A stretch of 47,423 nucleotides of DNA from assembly GCA_041694835.1 (NCBI GenBank), contig JBGFRZ010000052.1, forward strand, positions 1 through 47,423, written 5' to 3'. The position numbers were made by a program, and so were the translations under genes. Under the pieces are notes generated by a model that was not told the origin of the DNA, did no database searches, and saw only the letters and a list, made by a program, of their open reading frames with translations. Shown here one piece after another: positions 214 through 47,354 of the stretch (the stretch's first letter is position 1; every line of letters starts with the position of its first letter). The DNA comes from Ignavibacteria bacterium. Its GTDB lineage: Bacteria > Elusimicrobiota > Endomicrobiia > PHAN01.

Positions 214-1179
214 ATGTCACAAAAAATACTATCACAAATCATTTCCGAAATAGAAAAAGCGAAAACGATTTTTATCGCAGGGCACGCCCGTCCCGACGGT
301 GATACTGTCGGCTCGTCTCTCGCGCTAAAGCACGCCTTAAAGAAACTCGGGAAAAAAGTGGACGTATACTCAAAAGAAATTATACCCGATTATCTCAAGT
401 TTCTCCCCGGCTCGAAATCCATCAGAATTTCATCAGTTCCCGCCTCGAAAAAATACGACCTTGCCATAATTCTGGAGTGTTCGGATCTGGAAAGGATGGG
501 CAATATATTCAAAGCCGGGCAAGCGCAAAAAATAATAAACATAGACCACCATCTTATAAGCAATCCTTTCGGAGATATAAACTACATAGAACCGTTGTCG
601 AGTTCTACATGTTATCAGGTTTACCTGATGTTGAAGAATCTCGGTGTGGACATCTCAAAAGATATTGCCACCTGCCTCTACACGGGAACACTCACCGACA
701 CCGGGAAATTCCAGCAGAAAAACACAACGCCTGAAGCTTACAGCATGGCTTCGGAGCTCCTCAAAAAAGGCATAAATCTGGTAAAAATAAATGATTTTGT
801 CTATGGCAACAGAGCGACTGGGGCGTTCAAACTGCTCGGCGCCGCTCTCACTTCGCTTGAAATTTCGGGAAACGGAAAAGTCGCATTTATGACACTCACT
901 ATGAACGATTTCAAAAAAAATAAAGCCACCCAGTGGGACACTGAGGGGATTATCAACTATCCTCTGAGTATAAAGGGGGTCGGCATCTCGGTTCTTTTCA
1001 GAGAAATAAAAGGCGGCTTTACAAAGGTAAGCATGCGCTCTAAAGGAAACTTTGATTTGACAAAATTGGCCAAACGATTTAACGGGGGGGGGCATAAACA
1101 CGCCGCCGGTTTCACATTGAATAAAAGCATTGAAGACGCGAAAAAAACATTTCTAAAAAATAGAAATAAAATCTCTTGA
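214..1179 (+). CDS. nrnA: DHH/DHHA1 family oligoribonuclease/PAP phosphatase NrnA
   Basis: Motifs HARPDGD, IDHH, TDTG and GGGH. ATG at 214 is preferred because the longer ORF start is repeat-derived. Confidence 0.9.
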   Translation: MSQKILSQIISEIEKAKTIFIAGHARPDGDTVGSSLALKHALKKLGKKVDVYSKEIIPDYLKFLPGSKSIRISSVPASKKYDLAIILECSDLERMGNIFKAGQAQKIINIDHHLISNPFGDINYIEPLSSSTCYQVYLMLKNLGVDISKDIATCLYTGTLTDTGKFQQKNTTPEAYSMASELLKKGINLVKINDFVYGNRATGAFKLLGAALTSLEISGNGKVAFMTLTMNDFKKNKATQWDTEGIINYPLSIKGVGISVLFREIKGGFTKVSMRSKGNFDLTKLAKRFNGGGHKHAAGFTLNKSIEDAKKTFLKNRNKIS

Positions 1180-1204
1180 AATAATCGGATTTTTATGCTA
1201 AATT
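1176..1204 (+). promoter_or_regulatory. Candidate sigma70 promoter for the pilin cluster
   Basis: TTGAAA (1176-1181), 17-nt spacer, then TAAATT (1199-1204) preceded by TG-c (extended -10). Confidence 0.45.
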
Positions 1205-1216
1205 ATGAGAGTTATT

Positions 1217-1578
1217 AACCGCGGAGCGCACGGAGAACATCAAGAATAAAGTTTCAAAATCTTGGCTCTTCTCCAAATGTTGTTGTAACATTGGTTAAGG
1301 ATTTTGCAATATCGCTATGATGTGTGTGGGGTTAATTGTCTGACTATGTATTTTCGCTCATTCTCGTCCCGATAAATCGGGACTGCGAGGTAATCAAGTG
1401 TTCACACTTGATTAAACCCGCTCAAACACTTTGTTTTTATACGCACAACAAAAAATGGAAAAAACCCAAAATCCCTTAAATGTTCAAAAGTTTCAGGGTT
1501 TGAACTTGAAACTATGAACCATGCAACATGAAACTTTTTTAAGGGTTTAGTTCTCTGCGTGTTCTGCGTCCCCTGTGA
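1217..1578. repeat. Nested imperfect palindromic element upstream of the giant pilin
   Basis: Outer 9-mer arms ccgcggagcgcacggagaac and ctctgcgtgttctgcgtcccctgtg. Inner pairs aaagtttca/tgaaacttt and ttaaggattttg/caaaatcccttaa. Central hairpins gtcccga-taaa-tcgggac (1366-1383) and taatcaagtg-ttca-cacttgatta (1391-1414). Confidence 0.7.
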
Positions 1579-4058
1579 TGAAAAAAATGAACAAGAAAAA
1601 AAATGGTTTTTCACTGGCAGAGTTGATGATAGGCATAGCCATTATAGGCATTCTTTTTGCCGCTGTGGTCGGAACCTTTTACAGCATAGGTGGGGGCATC
1701 CTCGCTACTCGGACAAGAACCGTCGCCACAAATCTCACCGCAGAAAAATTGGAGGAGCTGAAAAATATTCCCTATAAACGTCTGGCTGTCACGAAACTCT
1801 CTGATCTGACGGAGGGAGGCGGTCCCAATTATGACAGAGTGTATTACGAGCCCGAGACCGGGGTTTTGGTGGGCGGAATAAACTACGAAAGGCGCGTTCT
1901 TATAAAAAAAGTTGTAGAATCCGGAACGACTCTTATGGAACTTCTTCCCACAGCGGACGACACTGGACTTAAAAAAATTACCGCAACTGTACTATGGACT
2001 GAAAATAATGAGCAACGGTCTATATCTCTGACAACCATGATAGACGACCCCGATAGAAGAAAACTCTCCGCGCAGATCCGCGGGCGCATAACGACATCGA
2101 CGGCAACAACGCTTGGGATACCTAACGCATCAGTCGTCGTGGCAGAAAATCCCAACTGGCGGACGACTACCGACACAAATGGATATTGGTCTATGCGCGT
2201 CTCAAGCGGGATGATGAGTGTAGTCGCTTCAAAAACCGGCTACTGGAACAGAATATCTACTGCTCATGTCATCGGTGAAGGAAACACAGTCGTTTTTTCC
2301 GACATACAGCTTGTTCCTAAAACCTACGGTAACATAAGCGGCTTTGTCTATATAAGGGACCATCTGGTTATATCCGAAATATGTCCCGGATACGACGGGA
2401 ACAGCACTCTGGAGTATGTTGAACTATACAACCCGACAACCTATCCAATCCGAATCGGAGACGGGTTTAATGCCCATATTTATGATTTAAAATATATTAC
2501 TAACGCCAATGTTGTTGAAAATTTTCCTCTGTGGACACACGCTGTAGCAGATCCTGTTATTCCATCAATGGGATACTTTTTAATAGCAAGTGTGACGTCG
2601 GTGGGCGGCGTTGCGGCAGACGGTTATTACACGGGCGGGGCGCAGGACTGCATAAAAGAACAAAGAAGAGGGGGCGTGGCTCTTCAAAGATACGGTGTTT
2701 ATATCGACTCGGTGGCATGGGGTAGCGCGGGAAGTTTTCCAAGCAATGGAATGGAAACAGAAGGCGTAATTGTAGCGGGTGGAGAAGAATTCGGAGGCGC
2801 TGGACAGGGGATAGGCAACAATAATGTTATTGAACGCTTATCCGCCAGCGGAGCAACCATGCCTAACGCTAATGGCAATGCTTTTGACTCCAACAACAAC
2901 AGGGCAGACTTTGCCTTGCACTCCAGCAGAAATCCGCAAAATTCTTTAAACTCCGAAACCCCCATGACCGGAACGCCCTTGGCGGGGGCGGTGGTATTTG
3001 CCTCCGACGATTTATCATCGCCAGTAACTACTTCAGCGACGGGGTATTTTACATTTAACATGACGGTGGCAACCGGAACATGGAATGTTTCAGCCATCGC
3101 CACAACCACAGCCGGTGGATTTTATGGAGCAACATCGACATTCACTCTGACGACAGGGCTCTCATTCAGCACTAATGTCATATTAAACATAGCGTCAAAC
3201 TATGGATACTTTCGAGGGGGCGTCAGGGTAAACGCTATACCTACCCAAGGCATAAAAGTCATAGCGGGAGACGGCCGGACACAAAGCGATGCGTCCGGCA
3301 GATTTGTGATTCCGGTCGTTTCGGGTGACAATTATGTCTACACGAATCCTAACAACGAAGACCCGAGATACACGTCAAGCTCCACCGGGCCGGTCAGTGT
3401 AATTGCAGGTGGGTTTACGGATGTGGGATGGCAGGATATCTATACGGGAGGCGGTGTGGTTGGCCGGATAACTATAAACGGGAGCGACGGATTAAGTGAT
3501 TTTCCCATAACGATATATGACAATAGCAACAACGAAGTCACTTCGGTTCTGACCGATGCGTTCGGCTATTTCAGTTTTTCCAACTTAAGAAGCGACTTAA
3601 ATAATTACAGACTCAGTCCGATTATCGAAACCGGAGAAACTTCAATACCAACTTCCCGGACCGTATCGGTTCAAAGCGGCGTTATCGAATCCTCTGACAC
3701 CTCCGGGAATTACAACTCTTTTGTGGTTTCAACTCTTTACGGCAAATTCAGGGGATACGTCAAAGATGGTGGGGCTTTTATAGAAACCGGGGTTTTGATT
3801 GTGGCGACTACTTCAACCATATCTGCCGAACCGATAAACATAACTCCGTCGGCAAGAGCATCGCTAAATCCAAATTATTATTCAACAGTCAGTCGTTCCG
3901 ACGGCAACTACACACTTGACGTCAGGGGTGGCTCAACTTATAATTTATACGGCTGGTATCCGAAAGTCACAGGTGGAACGGTGTCTTTCCCGAGAACCCA
4001 AAAATTAGGGTATGCGGCGGTGGCTGGAAGCACGACAATCGTAAACTTCGATTGGTAA
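1578..4058 (+). CDS. Giant type IV minor pilin-like protein: prepilin N-terminus, carboxypeptidase-regulatory-like beta repeats and lamin-tail-like domain
   Basis: Class III signal KNG|FSLAELMI. PilV-like YERRV...LKKITATVLW segment. Repeated G-x-I/V-x-G-x-V...TDxxGY motifs. LVISEI...EYVELYNPT lamin-tail signature. Start is at 1575, 1578 or 1587. Confidence 0.8.
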   Translation: MKKMNKKKNGFSLAELMIGIAIIGILFAAVVGTFYSIGGGILATRTRTVATNLTAEKLEELKNIPYKRLAVTKLSDLTEGGGPNYDRVYYEPETGVLVGGINYERRVLIKKVVESGTTLMELLPTADDTGLKKITATVLWTENNEQRSISLTTMIDDPDRRKLSAQIRGRITTSTATTLGIPNASVVVAENPNWRTTTDTNGYWSMRVSSGMMSVVASKTGYWNRISTAHVIGEGNTVVFSDIQLVPKTYGNISGFVYIRDHLVISEICPGYDGNSTLEYVELYNPTTYPIRIGDGFNAHIYDLKYITNANVVENFPLWTHAVADPVIPSMGYFLIASVTSVGGVAADGYYTGGAQDCIKEQRRGGVALQRYGVYIDSVAWGSAGSFPSNGMETEGVIVAGGEEFGGAGQGIGNNNVIERLSASGATMPNANGNAFDSNNNRADFALHSSRNPQNSLNSETPMTGTPLAGAVVFASDDLSSPVTTSATGYFTFNMTVATGTWNVSAIATTTAGGFYGATSTFTLTTGLSFSTNVILNIASNYGYFRGGVRVNAIPTQGIKVIAGDGRTQSDASGRFVIPVVSGDNYVYTNPNNEDPRYTSSSTGPVSVIAGGFTDVGWQDIYTGGGVVGRITINGSDGLSDFPITIYDNSNNEVTSVLTDAFGYFSFSNLRSDLNNYRLSPIIETGETSIPTSRTVSVQSGVIESSDTSGNYNSFVVSTLYGKFRGYVKDGGAFIETGVLIVATTSTISAEPINITPSARASLNPNYYSTVSRSDGNYTLDVRGGSTYNLYGWYPKVTGGTVSFPRTQKLGYAAVAGSTTIVNFDW

Positions 4059-4067
4059 TAGAAACCG

Positions 4068-4587
4068 TAATTAGGGTTCACTGACGCTTCGCTAAAATTC
4101 ACCACAGATTTATTTTTGGACGCAGCTCAATGCCGATTTTGACAAGATTGGCATATCTACCAAATCTGCGAAAGTCCGCGTTCTAAAAAATAATTGAACG
4201 CAGATAGACGCAGATGAAAAAAGATTTGAACCACGAAAGCGTGAAAACACGAAAATACTTGTAAAGAATTTTGTGATTTCTAATTTTCGTGATTTCGTGG
4301 TAAAGTTTTTAATCTGCGATAATCCTGTAAATCTGCGTCCTAAAAAATAATTGAACGCAGATGAACGCAGAAACAACTTTGATAAACGCAGATTAAAGCA
4401 ACTATAAACTCATCTGCAAAAATCTGCGTCCTATTTCTACTTCGTGGCAAGGTCTTTACATTAAGAATAGCAAAAAATCGTGCACTTTGAGCGTTGTTTT
4501 TATAGTTTCAGTTGTTTAATTCTCGTCGTAGTGCTTGAATTTTTAGCATTTTAGTCCCGCCTTGGCGGGATCAGCAGACCCTAATTA
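4068..4587. mobile_element. MITE-like element with terminal inverted repeats and nested hairpin repeats
   Basis: Perfect TIR TAATTAGGGT (4068-4077) / ACCCTAATTA (4578-4587), with further ctga and ctaaaat/attttag matches. Interior carries AACGCAGAT/ATCTGCG and CACGAAA/TTTCGTG repeat arms. No transposase ORF. Confidence 0.6.
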
Positions 4588-5099
4588 TGAACAATAAACG
4601 CGGGTTCACACTTATAGAGTTGATGATTGTCATCGCAATTGTCGGTGTGGTGTCCGTCATAACCACAAATTACATGGTCAATATAACGAGATTCTTCAGA
4701 ATAAGCCAGGCGAGGATTGAAATCCAGAGAGACGCGCGAAGGTGCATAGACCTTATAAACAGAAATGCTCGGCAATCATCCGCCTCTACGGTGATAGTTT
4801 CTAGATTCAACTCTTCACAGCCTCCATGGTCAATGATTGAATTTACAGACATCAAGGGAACCCAGTGGAAGTTTTATCAGAACGGTACAAATTTTTACAT
4901 GAGTGTGAAAAAAACCACAGACTTATCTTTCAATACGCAAAAGATTGCGGAAAATTTAAGAGCATTGATATTTGCTTATCCGAGGCTGGACGACGATACA
5001 ATAATCTCAATTTCAATCTGTTTTGAAAAGGCGACTTACGAGGGCCATGCCAAAGCGCTTCAGATGTCAGTTGAAAAAATAAGGATAATGAACATTTAA
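4587..5099 (+). CDS. Prepilin-type N-terminal cleavage/methylation protein (PilW/PulJ-like)
   Basis: KRG|FTLIELMIVIAIVGVV prepilin motif. Confidence 0.85.
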   Translation: MNNKRGFTLIELMIVIAIVGVVSVITTNYMVNITRFFRISQARIEIQRDARRCIDLINRNARQSSASTVIVSRFNSSQPPWSMIEFTDIKGTQWKFYQNGTNFYMSVKKTTDLSFNTQKIAENLRALIFAYPRLDDDTIISISICFEKATYEGHAKALQMSVEKIRIMNI

Positions 5100-5114
5100 A
5101 TACCGAGGGCTTTT

Positions 5115-6395
5115 ATGCTGAAAAACAACAAGGGTCAGTCGTTGGTTATTATTTTAGGGATTTCTCTTTTAATCGCTATTATGATACCGACTATGATTTT
5201 TCTGCTCCATCAGGAAGCCAAATGGACCGTTAAGCAGAAAAAAACCGTCACAGCTTTTCAAATCGCCGAGGCTGGGCTCGACAGGGCGGTATGGAAAATG
5301 AACGAAAACGCTACTAACTGGAGAAACGCCGCACAGGGAACTATCCCCCATGGCTCCGGCTTTGACGGCAATACAACATTCAGCGACGTGGCTGGTGGGG
5401 TGTACAGGATAAAAGTGGCGAGAGTATCGGACACAGAAATAGCGATAATGGCAGCGGGAAGAGATGACGACAATAGAGAGTTAAGAGGTCTATACTCTAT
5501 ATACGGCACCGACTTACTTGATACGAGCATAAGAACTGATGGCAATATATCTATGAGCGGAAACTTTGAAGTTCACTGGGGGCCTATAAAAACAAAAGGG
5601 AATATTAACCTTTCGGGGGCGGCAGAGAAAAGATTCTATCCTAAAAAATACGCGACAGGCAACGTAAATCCCAGAGACACCACGGGCTCTACGCCGCCCA
5701 ACAACTGCACCTGCAGCATTTGCCTCTCGGGAAGTTACAGTGGTCCGGAATGGACATCGCTTGCAACAATTCCAGATATTGAAATTGACCTTGACAGATA
5801 TAAAACACTCGCTCAAAACTACCGCCCGCCACCTGGTTCGCCTACGGGAACAAGCGGCTATAGGGAATCTAATGTTACCTTTAACAACTTCGAGGACAAC
5901 CAGACATCCACAGCGACTTACTATATAAAAGGCAATATGACACTTCAAAATTCATTTATAAGAGGTAGAATAATCGTTGAGGGGAATGCAGAATTTGGAG
6001 CGGCCGGGGGAAAAACAAAGGACAACTATCCCATCATCGTCCCTGCGGGTGCATCAAAACATTATCGCTGTAACAACTTCGGCTCGGTGGGTGGCGCAAC
6101 TGACCCATGGACATTCTGGACAGGACGGGGGTGGGTGGAAAATTCTTCTACAACTCTAAACAAAGTTGCCTTGCACGGATTTTTATTTGCCACGGGTAAT
6201 TTGACAGGGACTGCCAACTCAACAGTGATTGGTGGGGTGGCCATAAAAGGTAACGCTGAAGTTGCCGGGACGCCCGTAGTGTACTACTCACCAACAACCA
6301 TATCGCCGATAGAGTATAAAAATCTGTCATGGCAAAAAACCATATGGAGAGAGTTCCACCCACAAAATTTTACTTCACCAAACTGGCCATATTAG
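5115..6395 (+). CDS. PilX-like minor pilin
   Basis: NKG|QSLVIIL lacks Glu5. AFQIAEAGLDRA is a PilX N-terminal motif. The C-terminus is G/N-rich and beta-helix-like. Confidence 0.8.
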   Translation: MLKNNKGQSLVIILGISLLIAIMIPTMIFLLHQEAKWTVKQKKTVTAFQIAEAGLDRAVWKMNENATNWRNAAQGTIPHGSGFDGNTTFSDVAGGVYRIKVARVSDTEIAIMAAGRDDDNRELRGLYSIYGTDLLDTSIRTDGNISMSGNFEVHWGPIKTKGNINLSGAAEKRFYPKKYATGNVNPRDTTGSTPPNNCTCSICLSGSYSGPEWTSLATIPDIEIDLDRYKTLAQNYRPPPGSPTGTSGYRESNVTFNNFEDNQTSTATYYIKGNMTLQNSFIRGRIIVEGNAEFGAAGGKTKDNYPIIVPAGASKHYRCNNFGSVGGATDPWTFWTGRGWVENSSTTLNKVALHGFLFATGNLTGTANSTVIGGVAIKGNAEVAGTPVVYYSPTTISPIEYKNLSWQKTIWREFHPQNFTSPNWPY

Positions 6396-47231: not shown

Positions 47232-47354
47232 AATTATTCGCTCCTCTTCGCTTCGCTCACATAGAGAATAGAGCACAGAGATTAAAGATTAGTAGATGAA
47301 AATTTTGGTAATAGCCAAAGAAAACGGACTAAAATTATGCTAAAATAAGACATT

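Follow-up and report, generated by a model that had tools for sequence, protein, structure and literature searches.

A non-autonomous MITE-like element with a polymorphic terminal-repeat segment between two pilin-like genes of an uncultured bacterium of the Elusimicrobiota

Introduction

The question raised by this locus is what separates two co-oriented pilin-like genes that lie 528 bp apart on contig JBGFRZ010000052.1 (assembly GCA_041694835.1), and how a perfect 16-nt palindrome came to sit in one end of the intervening DNA. The contig is from an uncultured bacterium deposited as an Ignavibacteria bacterium and assigned by GTDB to the Elusimicrobiota (Endomicrobiia, PHAN01), and the whole analysed stretch of 47,423 nucleotides is referred to here as the window. 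An original prediction, made from the letters alone, described positions 4068-4587 as a non-autonomous element of the MITE kind (miniature inverted-repeat transposable element) in which tiny palindromes are swapped at a defined site by a targeted process. The evidence described below supports a non-autonomous MITE-like element at 4073-4582, for which no transposase partner was found in the assembly. For the palindrome we favour a different history, with a probability of about 60%: the palindrome-bearing end variant had a single origin, after which transposition and recombination between copies spread it within a lineage-restricted family of foldback MITE-like repeats.

A dispersed repeat family with defined ends

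The genome holding the locus is assembled to 1.9 Mb in 89 contigs (labelled C with a number), is 97% complete and is broken at repeats; the studied copy lies on C56. The spacer gave 109 matches in this genome, and the 233 high-scoring segment pairs (HSPs) of a blastn search clustered into 100 loci. The matches are modular, with pieces occurring singly or reordered, and repeated sequence amounts to ~5% of the genome. Three sister copies (C67, C68 and C57) have both arms as in C56; what sets them apart is confined to internal blocks with AAATCTGCG repeats at their borders, and copy number varies among them at these repeats.

The end strings and coordinates on which the original prediction was built are all present. 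Positions 4068-4098 read TAATTAGGGT-TCA-CTGA-CGCTTCG-CTAAAAT, and the reverse complement of 4548-4587 reads TAATTAGGGT-CTG-CTGA-TCCCGCCAAGGCGGGA-CTAAAAT. A repeat search of the window recovered the inverted arms 4068-4084 and 4571-4587 (17 nt, 82% complementary), and the two end types, A on the left and B on the right, are identical at 21 of 26 aligned positions. A genome-wide search for such ends with tabulation of the slot between CTGA and the conserved tail had been proposed as a check, and the ends proved not to be unique. A fuzzy search for the ends of the family, AGGGT...CTGACGCT, returned 39 matches, 33 of which were judged real, and a profile made from those 33 returned 78 matches at E values up to 10. 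Strict typing started from 51 rows, from which 12 with two outer mismatches and without the family tail were dropped, leaving 39 typed ends. Spanning the left slot is the 16-nt box TGACGCTTYGCTAAAA; with one mismatch or none it has 46 occurrences in the genome versus one for a backwards control, and it has one in the window versus 0.08 expected. Family members range from 151 to 632 bp. All 14 paired copies are intergenic, in either orientation, and no open reading frame (ORF) of at least 90 aa spans any of them.

About 20 further box-bearing ends, designated type C, begin with (T)ATAATGAGACC instead of AGGGT (e.g. C39:741, C54:40027 and C52:50477). Several of these carry a perfect TATAAT, some with a preceding TGn, pointing into the element, so that such foldback modules could be transcribed from their own end. 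Contigs ending inside family repeats were noted at C81:1-171, C54:1-181, C84:126515-126657, C52:50489-50546, C28:92-145 and C13:123-217.

Outside this genome, searches of 30 relatives, which include no genome of the same genus, did not recover the family; two weak low-complexity matches were seen in relative G026. Searches with the end pattern gave two matches in public genome contigs and four in metagenome contigs, all by chance and in unrelated settings. The 16-nt box occurs zero to two times in each of 60 relatives, except for six occurrences in G003, a genome of the same class. These six are identical, evidently recent copies of a different MITE of ~235-240 bp with GGGTCT...AGACCC ends and perfect 8-bp target duplications (G003 sites C25:12240, C34:3844, C68:24163, C81:29504, C84:24073 and C85:3819). 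A full-text literature search combining Elusimicrobia and MITE returned only a general insertion-sequence survey, and we know of no description of this family.

Evidence for insertion

Target-site duplications were examined in 11 paired elements. Perfect duplications of 4 bp (four copies) or 5 bp (two copies) flank six of them (ACAT, AATT, AAAT, ACTT, AAGTT and ATATT), and two more show a duplication with one mismatch. In a control in which left flanks were combined with the wrong right flanks, 5 of 110 combinations matched (binomial 3e-6). Empty sites were also found within the genome. An unrelated 34-copy repeat is uninterrupted at C49:14994, while the copy at C49:31881-32324 is filled with a 400-bp element and a second ACAT; likewise, the sequence at C71:17703 is uninterrupted and its counterpart from C77:29529 onward holds a 358-bp element and a second AAGTT.

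At the studied locus, the outer TAATT/AATTA consists of the AATT duplication plus one flanking base on each side. Accordingly, the A of the downstream ATG (4587-4589) is host sequence outside the element, contrary to the suggestion that the right terminal repeat supplies it. Removal of 4073-4586 leaves a 14-nt gap between the pilin genes. The proposed check for an empty site between these genes in relatives gave a consistent picture. Homologues of the small pilin were present in 15 of the 30 relatives searched, and in all ten loci examined the big pilin gene neighbours the small one in the same order, with the next gene also retained in nine. The tblastn HSP ends of the two genes are 8-146 nt apart in these loci, or ~1-45 nt once unaligned residues are added, a comparison made at 30-54% protein identity and hence not base by base. 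The gap is therefore short in 10/10 loci and the spacer is not conserved.

Terminal inverted repeats, target-site duplications, small non-coding dispersed copies and empty sites, which are generic features of MITEs, were thus all found, and a cognate autonomous element with the same ends was not. Multiple copies, inverted ends, duplications, paralogous empty sites and the short spacer in relatives together support the classification of 4073-4582 as a non-autonomous MITE-like element, as originally proposed.

A locus-specific regulatory leader or small RNA of the downstream pilin gene, rather than a mobile element, could also account for a spacer that ends 4 nt before a start codon and has a strong predicted RNA structure (-143.3 kcal/mol; z = -5.5 versus shuffles). 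This explanation is largely refuted, since the same modules occur at ~100 loci with unrelated neighbouring genes and in both orientations and the spacer is absent from the 10/10 syntenic loci of relatives. No match at the gathering score was found in the window with Rfam 15, and relaxing the threshold to E values up to 1 on 1100-5000 returned only a chance microRNA match (23.5 bits versus a threshold of 130). A promoter and terminator consensus scan of 1100-5200 found no site inside the element, with totals equal to those of shuffled sequences. We also considered the slot as a -35/-10 spacer within the box and dropped the idea, the hexamers being poor at every spacing tried by eye. The long and odd spacer inside a conserved pilin operon thus represents an insertion, not a regulatory invention. 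An assembly artefact, in which a repeat was collapsed or mis-joined in a metagenome-assembled genome, would fit the many copies at contig ends, where family repeats break the assembly; it is scarcely credible here, given that both flanks run on into unique coding sequence whose order is that found in relatives, and that an exact 4-bp duplication flanks the element. Public sequencing runs matching 3700-5000 were looked for, and none was listed.

Two further observations concern insertion sites. At C52:10148 and C84:121933, two paralogous 60-nt flanks are interrupted by an element at exactly the same base; the two elements are oppositely oriented and have different interiors (372 and 270 bp). 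This reflects either a marked hot spot for insertion or, following duplication, inversion in situ. At C87:16426 and C57:2112, the upstream reading frame stops 2 nt into the element, where the flanking T and the AG of AGGGT form TAG, so that insertions can supply the stop codon of a neighbouring gene. For annotation, this means that family repeats break assemblies and can supply the stop codons or abut the start codons of their neighbours.

Architecture of the element

The features of the locus are listed in Table 1. The interior consists of hairpins of CGCAGAT/ATCTGCG words together with a CACGAAA/TTTCGTG hairpin at 4229-4301, and contains a direct repeat with a period of 157 bp (4172-4214 and 4329-4371). 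The only ORF inside the element is a low-complexity frame of 88 aa on the minus strand. In simpler members of the family the foldback is near-perfect, and each arm is an array of 7-base words.

Table 1 Features of the element and its flanking genes (window coordinates).
Feature	Position	Strand	Description
Upstream gene	1575-4058	+	827-aa pilin-like protein with N-terminal methylation motif (N_methyl) and CarboxypepD_reg domains; stop codon 4056-4058
Left target-site duplication	4069-4072		AATT, 4 bp
Non-coding element	4073-4582	+	AGGGT...ACCCT, 510 bp; composite foldback repeat
Left end, type A	4073-4108	+	outer AGGGTTCACTGA, slot CGCTTCGCT (4085-4093), then AAAATTCACCACAGA
Conserved box	4082-4097	+	TGACGCTTCGCTAAAA, in the type-A left end
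Interior of repeat modules	4109-4446	+	modules also at ~50 loci without AGGGT ends
Long inner arm of right end ("B-long" tail)	4447-4554	-	common to 8 other loci
Right-end slot	4555-4570		perfect 16-nt palindrome TCCCGCCTTGGCGGGA; 18 nt with adjacent AG (4553-4554); 9 or 0 nt in other copies
Right end, outer 12 nt, type B	4571-4582	-	AGGGTCTGCTGA on the minus strand
Right target-site duplication	4583-4586		AATT, directly before the ATG
Downstream gene	4587-5099	+	170-aa pilin-like protein with N_methyl motif at residues 1-25; intact, conserved in relatives

Slot alleles and mosaic structure

The 39 ends fall into three outer types, A (AGGGTTCACTGA), B (AGGGTCTGCTGA) and D (AGGGCTTACTGA), and four fillings were found between CTGA and AAAA: nothing, CGCTTCGCT, CGCTAC(G/A)CT and TCCCGCCAAGGCGGGACT, corresponding to 0, 9, 9 and 18 nt. 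The slot is thus a real polymorphic site of the terminal repeat of the family, with lengths that step by 9 nt. The original prediction saw in it two interchangeable mini-hairpins; the polymorphism held up, with four states instead of two, and the second hairpin did not. The 18-nt filling, the palindrome plus CT, is the only one that forms a hairpin. CGCTTCG is not palindromic and forms none; it differs from CGCTACG and CGCTACA by one or two point changes.

The combinations of outer type, slot and tail are given in Table 2. All five strictly typed palindrome ends have outer type B, while none of the 26 ends of types A and D carries the palindrome, and the slot is empty in 6/6 ends of type D. 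Three more palindrome-bearing ends have an altered (C46:129) or lost (C57:2707 and C27:2283) outer part. Perfect duplications flank three of five palindrome-bearing copies (C56, C87 and C46), which indicates that this end is, or was, competent for transposition.

Table 2 Composition of the 39 strictly typed ends.
Outer type	Slot	Tail	Number of ends
A	heptamer	A	16
A	heptamer	other	1
A	heptamer	B	1
A	empty	C	2
B	CGCTTCG	A	1
B	CGCTACG	B	3
B	CGCTACA	B	4
B	palindrome	B	4
B	palindrome	A	1
D	empty	B	3
D	empty	other	3

In a tree of the 125-nt inner tail (nine rows, C87 on a long branch), the five palindrome copies do not form one clade (four state changes; approximately unbiased test, p = 3.6e-5). 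The interior of the C38 copy is ~96% the same as that of C56, yet it has a slot-less D end, and chimeric ends were found at C77:29551, C87:16426 and C44:8358. The palindrome is joined to interiors of different lineages, and the family is accordingly a mosaic.

Could a dedicated process recognise the slot and exchange one mini-hairpin for another, as the original prediction implied? The slot borders are sharp and constant (CTGA on one side and AAAA on the other), the contents alternate in otherwise similar ends, the alleles measure 0, 9 and 18 nt, and a second palindrome variant occupies the slot at C27. We nevertheless regard such a process as very unlikely. CGCTTCG is a point variant of other heptamers, the palindrome is always linked to a single outer type, and no candidate enzyme was found. 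Moreover, conservation between the end types is confined to the stretches that form the borders, which is where homologous exchange between diverged copies would resolve and where crossovers would be expected to fall. Of 348 indel sites compared between paralogous repeats, just 7 held a perfect stem of at least 6 bp, none of the TCCCG...CGGGA class to which the palindrome belongs, although replacements are invisible to this test. In a recombinant mosaic family, a dedicated hairpin-swapping process is not needed.

Side observations on the 9-nt filling are as follows. Among ends of types A, B, C and D, CGCTTCGCT is absent as a clean block in three settings (e.g. C80:30724 and C38:12185; it is present at window 4085-4093), and CGCTTCGCT or its complement AGCGAAGC also occurs beside TCCCCC...GGGGGA hairpins in other modules. 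The original prediction pointed to a recurrence of this string near 47249 of the window. The 9-mer is indeed present at ~47249, without the rest of the box; perfect boxes account for 20 of its 67 occurrences in the genome, and its presence at ~47249 carries little weight.

Proposed origin of the palindrome-bearing end

In the history that we favour, the element inserted with a 4-bp staggered-cut duplication of AATT into a 14-nt gap between the two pilin genes. A DDE-type transposase, not found in the assembly, may have been supplied in trans, generating AT-rich duplications of 4-5 bp at T|A(N2-3)T|A sites. The studied copy is a composite of a type-A end, an interior of word-repeat hairpins and a long type-B arm, with interior modules that expand and contract at short direct repeats. 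Its 16-nt palindrome represents one allele (0, 9 or 18 nt) of a terminal-repeat segment that is short and polymorphic. This allele may have arisen on a type-B outer end, been carried to new sites by transposition, and been joined to other interiors by recombination between copies. A single origin is most likely, short of proof. Such recombination would also take place within a single element, whose two inverted ends would exchange sequence or invert through crossovers in CTGA and CTAAAAT. As a consequence for the operon, a highly structured 510-nt spacer would now separate pilin genes that were formerly probably translationally coupled.

Several observations weigh against this history. The duplications are irregular in length (4 or 5 bp) and absent from 3 of the 11 pairs, and the element boundary is ambiguous by one base, with a T before and an A after nearly every copy. 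Slot states are mixed within each tail sub-lineage, which fits recurrent change as well as recombination. At C27:2283 the slot is filled by a different palindrome, TCCCGCAAAGCGGGA. Eleven sites hold the exact 16-mer, five in the slot and six elsewhere, and these six have at least five distinct flank settings; furthermore, it is present in one and absent from the other of two paralogues at C44:4322 and C44:5197-5108. Finally, no autonomous partner was found in the genome, nine transposase Pfam families having been searched without a gene bounded by the ends of the element. With an assembly that is 97% complete, in 89 contigs and broken at repeats, the absence of an autonomous element is not established; many contigs end in family repeats, which shows that these repeats limit the assembly and that a multi-copy autonomous element may be unassembled.

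The locus has some general interest. It exemplifies a repeat family orphaned of its transposase in ~100 gene gaps of a 1.9-Mb uncultured bacterial genome. A transposon end that carries 0, 9 or 18 additional bases also forms a natural series and a test case for the spacing tolerance of a terminal repeat, in which copies with the longest allele still have fresh target duplications.

The mini-palindrome class

The palindrome of the right end belongs to a wider class. TCCCG(2-10)CGGGA occurs at 107 genome sites versus 11 in a shuffled genome. These hairpins, 13-20 nt long, have a constant base with a variable upper stem and loop. They comprise 61 distinct sequences, 35 of which have stems of at least 6 bp (6-8 bp) versus ~15 expected by chance extension, and 18 of 36 with stems of at least 6 bp lie outside ORFs in a genome with a non-ORF share of 13%. 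The largest subclass is TCCCGAT(G/A)-loop-(C/T)ATCGGGA, and in the window the class is represented at 4555-4570 and 1367-1382. Other recurring mini-hairpin words are TCCCCC...GGGGGA at 33 sites and CCCCGTTAGA...TCTAACGGGG at eight.

These data bear on the possibility that the 16-nt palindrome is a minute mobile unit of its own, similar to REP sequences and copied and pasted, or converted, between unrelated repeat modules, which entered a type-B end in one event and was then inherited. In addition to the non-slot sites of the 16-mer and the enrichment of the class, paralogues differ in the presence of a hairpin in three settings (C44, C39/C26 and C9/C46, the last two involving related hairpins), and different hairpins of the class occupy the same position in another module, before CAAGTT. 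Such a unit seems unlikely to us all the same. The six other sites have no common flanking motif or duplication, the hairpins in the three paralogue comparisons replace neighbouring bases and are not clean insertions, and the scarcity of stems among indels described above counts against it. The only RAYT-like gene (see below) is flanked by a different inverted repeat with its own ~8 sites, and the general shuffling of modules in this genome explains the same data. If the mini-palindromes were self-mobile, they would be mobile units of a new kind, and very small ones.

A more speculative extension, which we consider doubtful, is that the TCCCG...CGGGA mini-palindromes are independently propagating cassettes written into defined positions of other repeats by an undescribed process. 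A few bases would be replaced without target duplication, the MITE terminal repeat would be one landing site, and the 0/9/18-nt steps would reflect a spacing constraint within the transposon end.

The palindrome TCCCGATAAATCGGGA at 1367-1382, cited in the original prediction as a relative of the slot palindrome, is present as described; it lies within a separate 34-copy family and is weak evidence. This family is built on TTTCGCTCATTCTCG-TCCCGATAAATCGGGA-CTGCGAGG; its copy at 1290-1480 of the window immediately precedes the big pilin gene, and one on C41 is likewise upstream of an ORF for a secreted protein. Its copies differ by nested block deletions at short direct repeats, and one has a different, longer hairpin at the same position. 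Rfam gave no match for the copy at 1290-1480.

Search for a transposase

Among the families searched, DDE_Tnp_Tn3, DDE_3, DDE_Tnp_1_2, DDE_Tnp_4, DDE_5 and the TnpB zinc ribbon gave no match in the genome, and a repeat survey of the 89 contigs found no long multi-copy insertion sequence. A DDE_Tnp_1 match on C46 was rejected as a partner, being a 51-aa remnant located 141 bp outside an element with unrelated sequence between them. An rve match on C42 was also rejected; it is a truncated ORF of 169 aa, and a peptidase gene lies between it and the nearest end.

The Y1_Tnp search identified one RAYT-like (IS200-like) gene of 236 aa at C41:8757-9467, flanked by perfect 21-bp inverted repeats AATTGGGGACGGTCCTCAATT. 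This repeat occurs at ~8 genome sites, ~6 of which are solo copies elsewhere. The gene and its repeats are a small REP-RAYT-like system, distinct from the studied element, and RAYT was ruled out as the driver of the palindromes, the flanking repeats of the gene itself being different.

Two known groups were considered. The first bases of the type-B end may resemble Tn3-family ends; a link to Tn3 was discarded, as PF01526 (DDE_Tnp_Tn3) is found in 0/61 genomes. An IS630/Tc1-type MITE with TA duplication was likewise rejected: DDE_3 (PF13358) is absent from the genome, and in C49, C87, C77, C84 and C46 the flanking TA and AGGGT are separated by 2-3 bases that form direct copies and not inverted ones.

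Comparison with known systems

REP, BIME and REPIN sequences are short GC-rich intergenic palindromes present in many copies, forming mosaics with other motifs and lacking a target duplication, and they are associated with RAYT transposases. The comparison with them applies to the TCCCG...CGGGA hairpin class and not to the whole element. In contrast to REP sequences, the hairpins of this genome are 13-20 nt long without a conserved flanking tetranucleotide, and unlike in REPIN-RAYT systems, the RAYT-like gene is flanked by the 21-bp inverted repeat and not by the palindromes.

Correia elements (CREE/NEMIS) of Neisseria have a TA duplication and 26-bp ends. According to PMC10969869, they resemble the present family in their high copy number, their position between or before genes, their inverted ends capable of pairing in RNA, their end subtypes, and the lack of a known transposase in the host. 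In-situ inversion has been reported for Correia elements (PMC10969869), and a similar inversion may be the route to the chimeric ends found here. Correia elements differ in being shorter and more uniform, and promoters, IHF sites and RNase III cutting have been demonstrated for them (PMC10969869), whereas no promoter-like site was found in the present element.

TIMEs, which are Tn3-derived MITEs (PMC4133298), share with the present family AT-rich duplications (5 or 6 bp), stable predicted RNA folds, and portable ends, two of which can mobilise any sequence that they enclose and so build non-autonomous mosaics. They differ in having 38-bp Tn3-type ends, being usually single-copy and co-occurring with Tn3-family transposases (PMC4133298), whereas the present genome has 39 or more ends with 4-5 bp duplications, and DDE_Tnp_Tn3 is missing from all 61 genomes. 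Identity with TIMEs was rejected on copy number, duplication length and transposase.

BOX elements of Streptococcus pneumoniae and S. suis, with the organisation boxA-(boxB)n-boxC and a length of 67-637 bp, are similar in several respects (PMC3049150). They too are small non-coding foldback MITE-like modular repeats, with two different end modules around variable tandem inner modules (67-637 bp there, 151-632 bp here). In S. suis, alternative pairs of end modules surround the same inner modules, and BOX elements cluster with and insert into other repeats (PMC3049150). The likeness is one of organisation, and no relation in sequence is expected. Here, unlike in BOX, there is no candidate insertion sequence with matching ends, the duplications are of 4-5 bp, and the end has alleles of 0, 9 and 18 nt, one of which is a perfect palindrome. 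The element between the pilin genes is an ordinary kind of element from an undescribed family, and its unusual detail is the set of 0/9/18-nt alleles in the terminal repeat, the longest of them a perfect palindrome.

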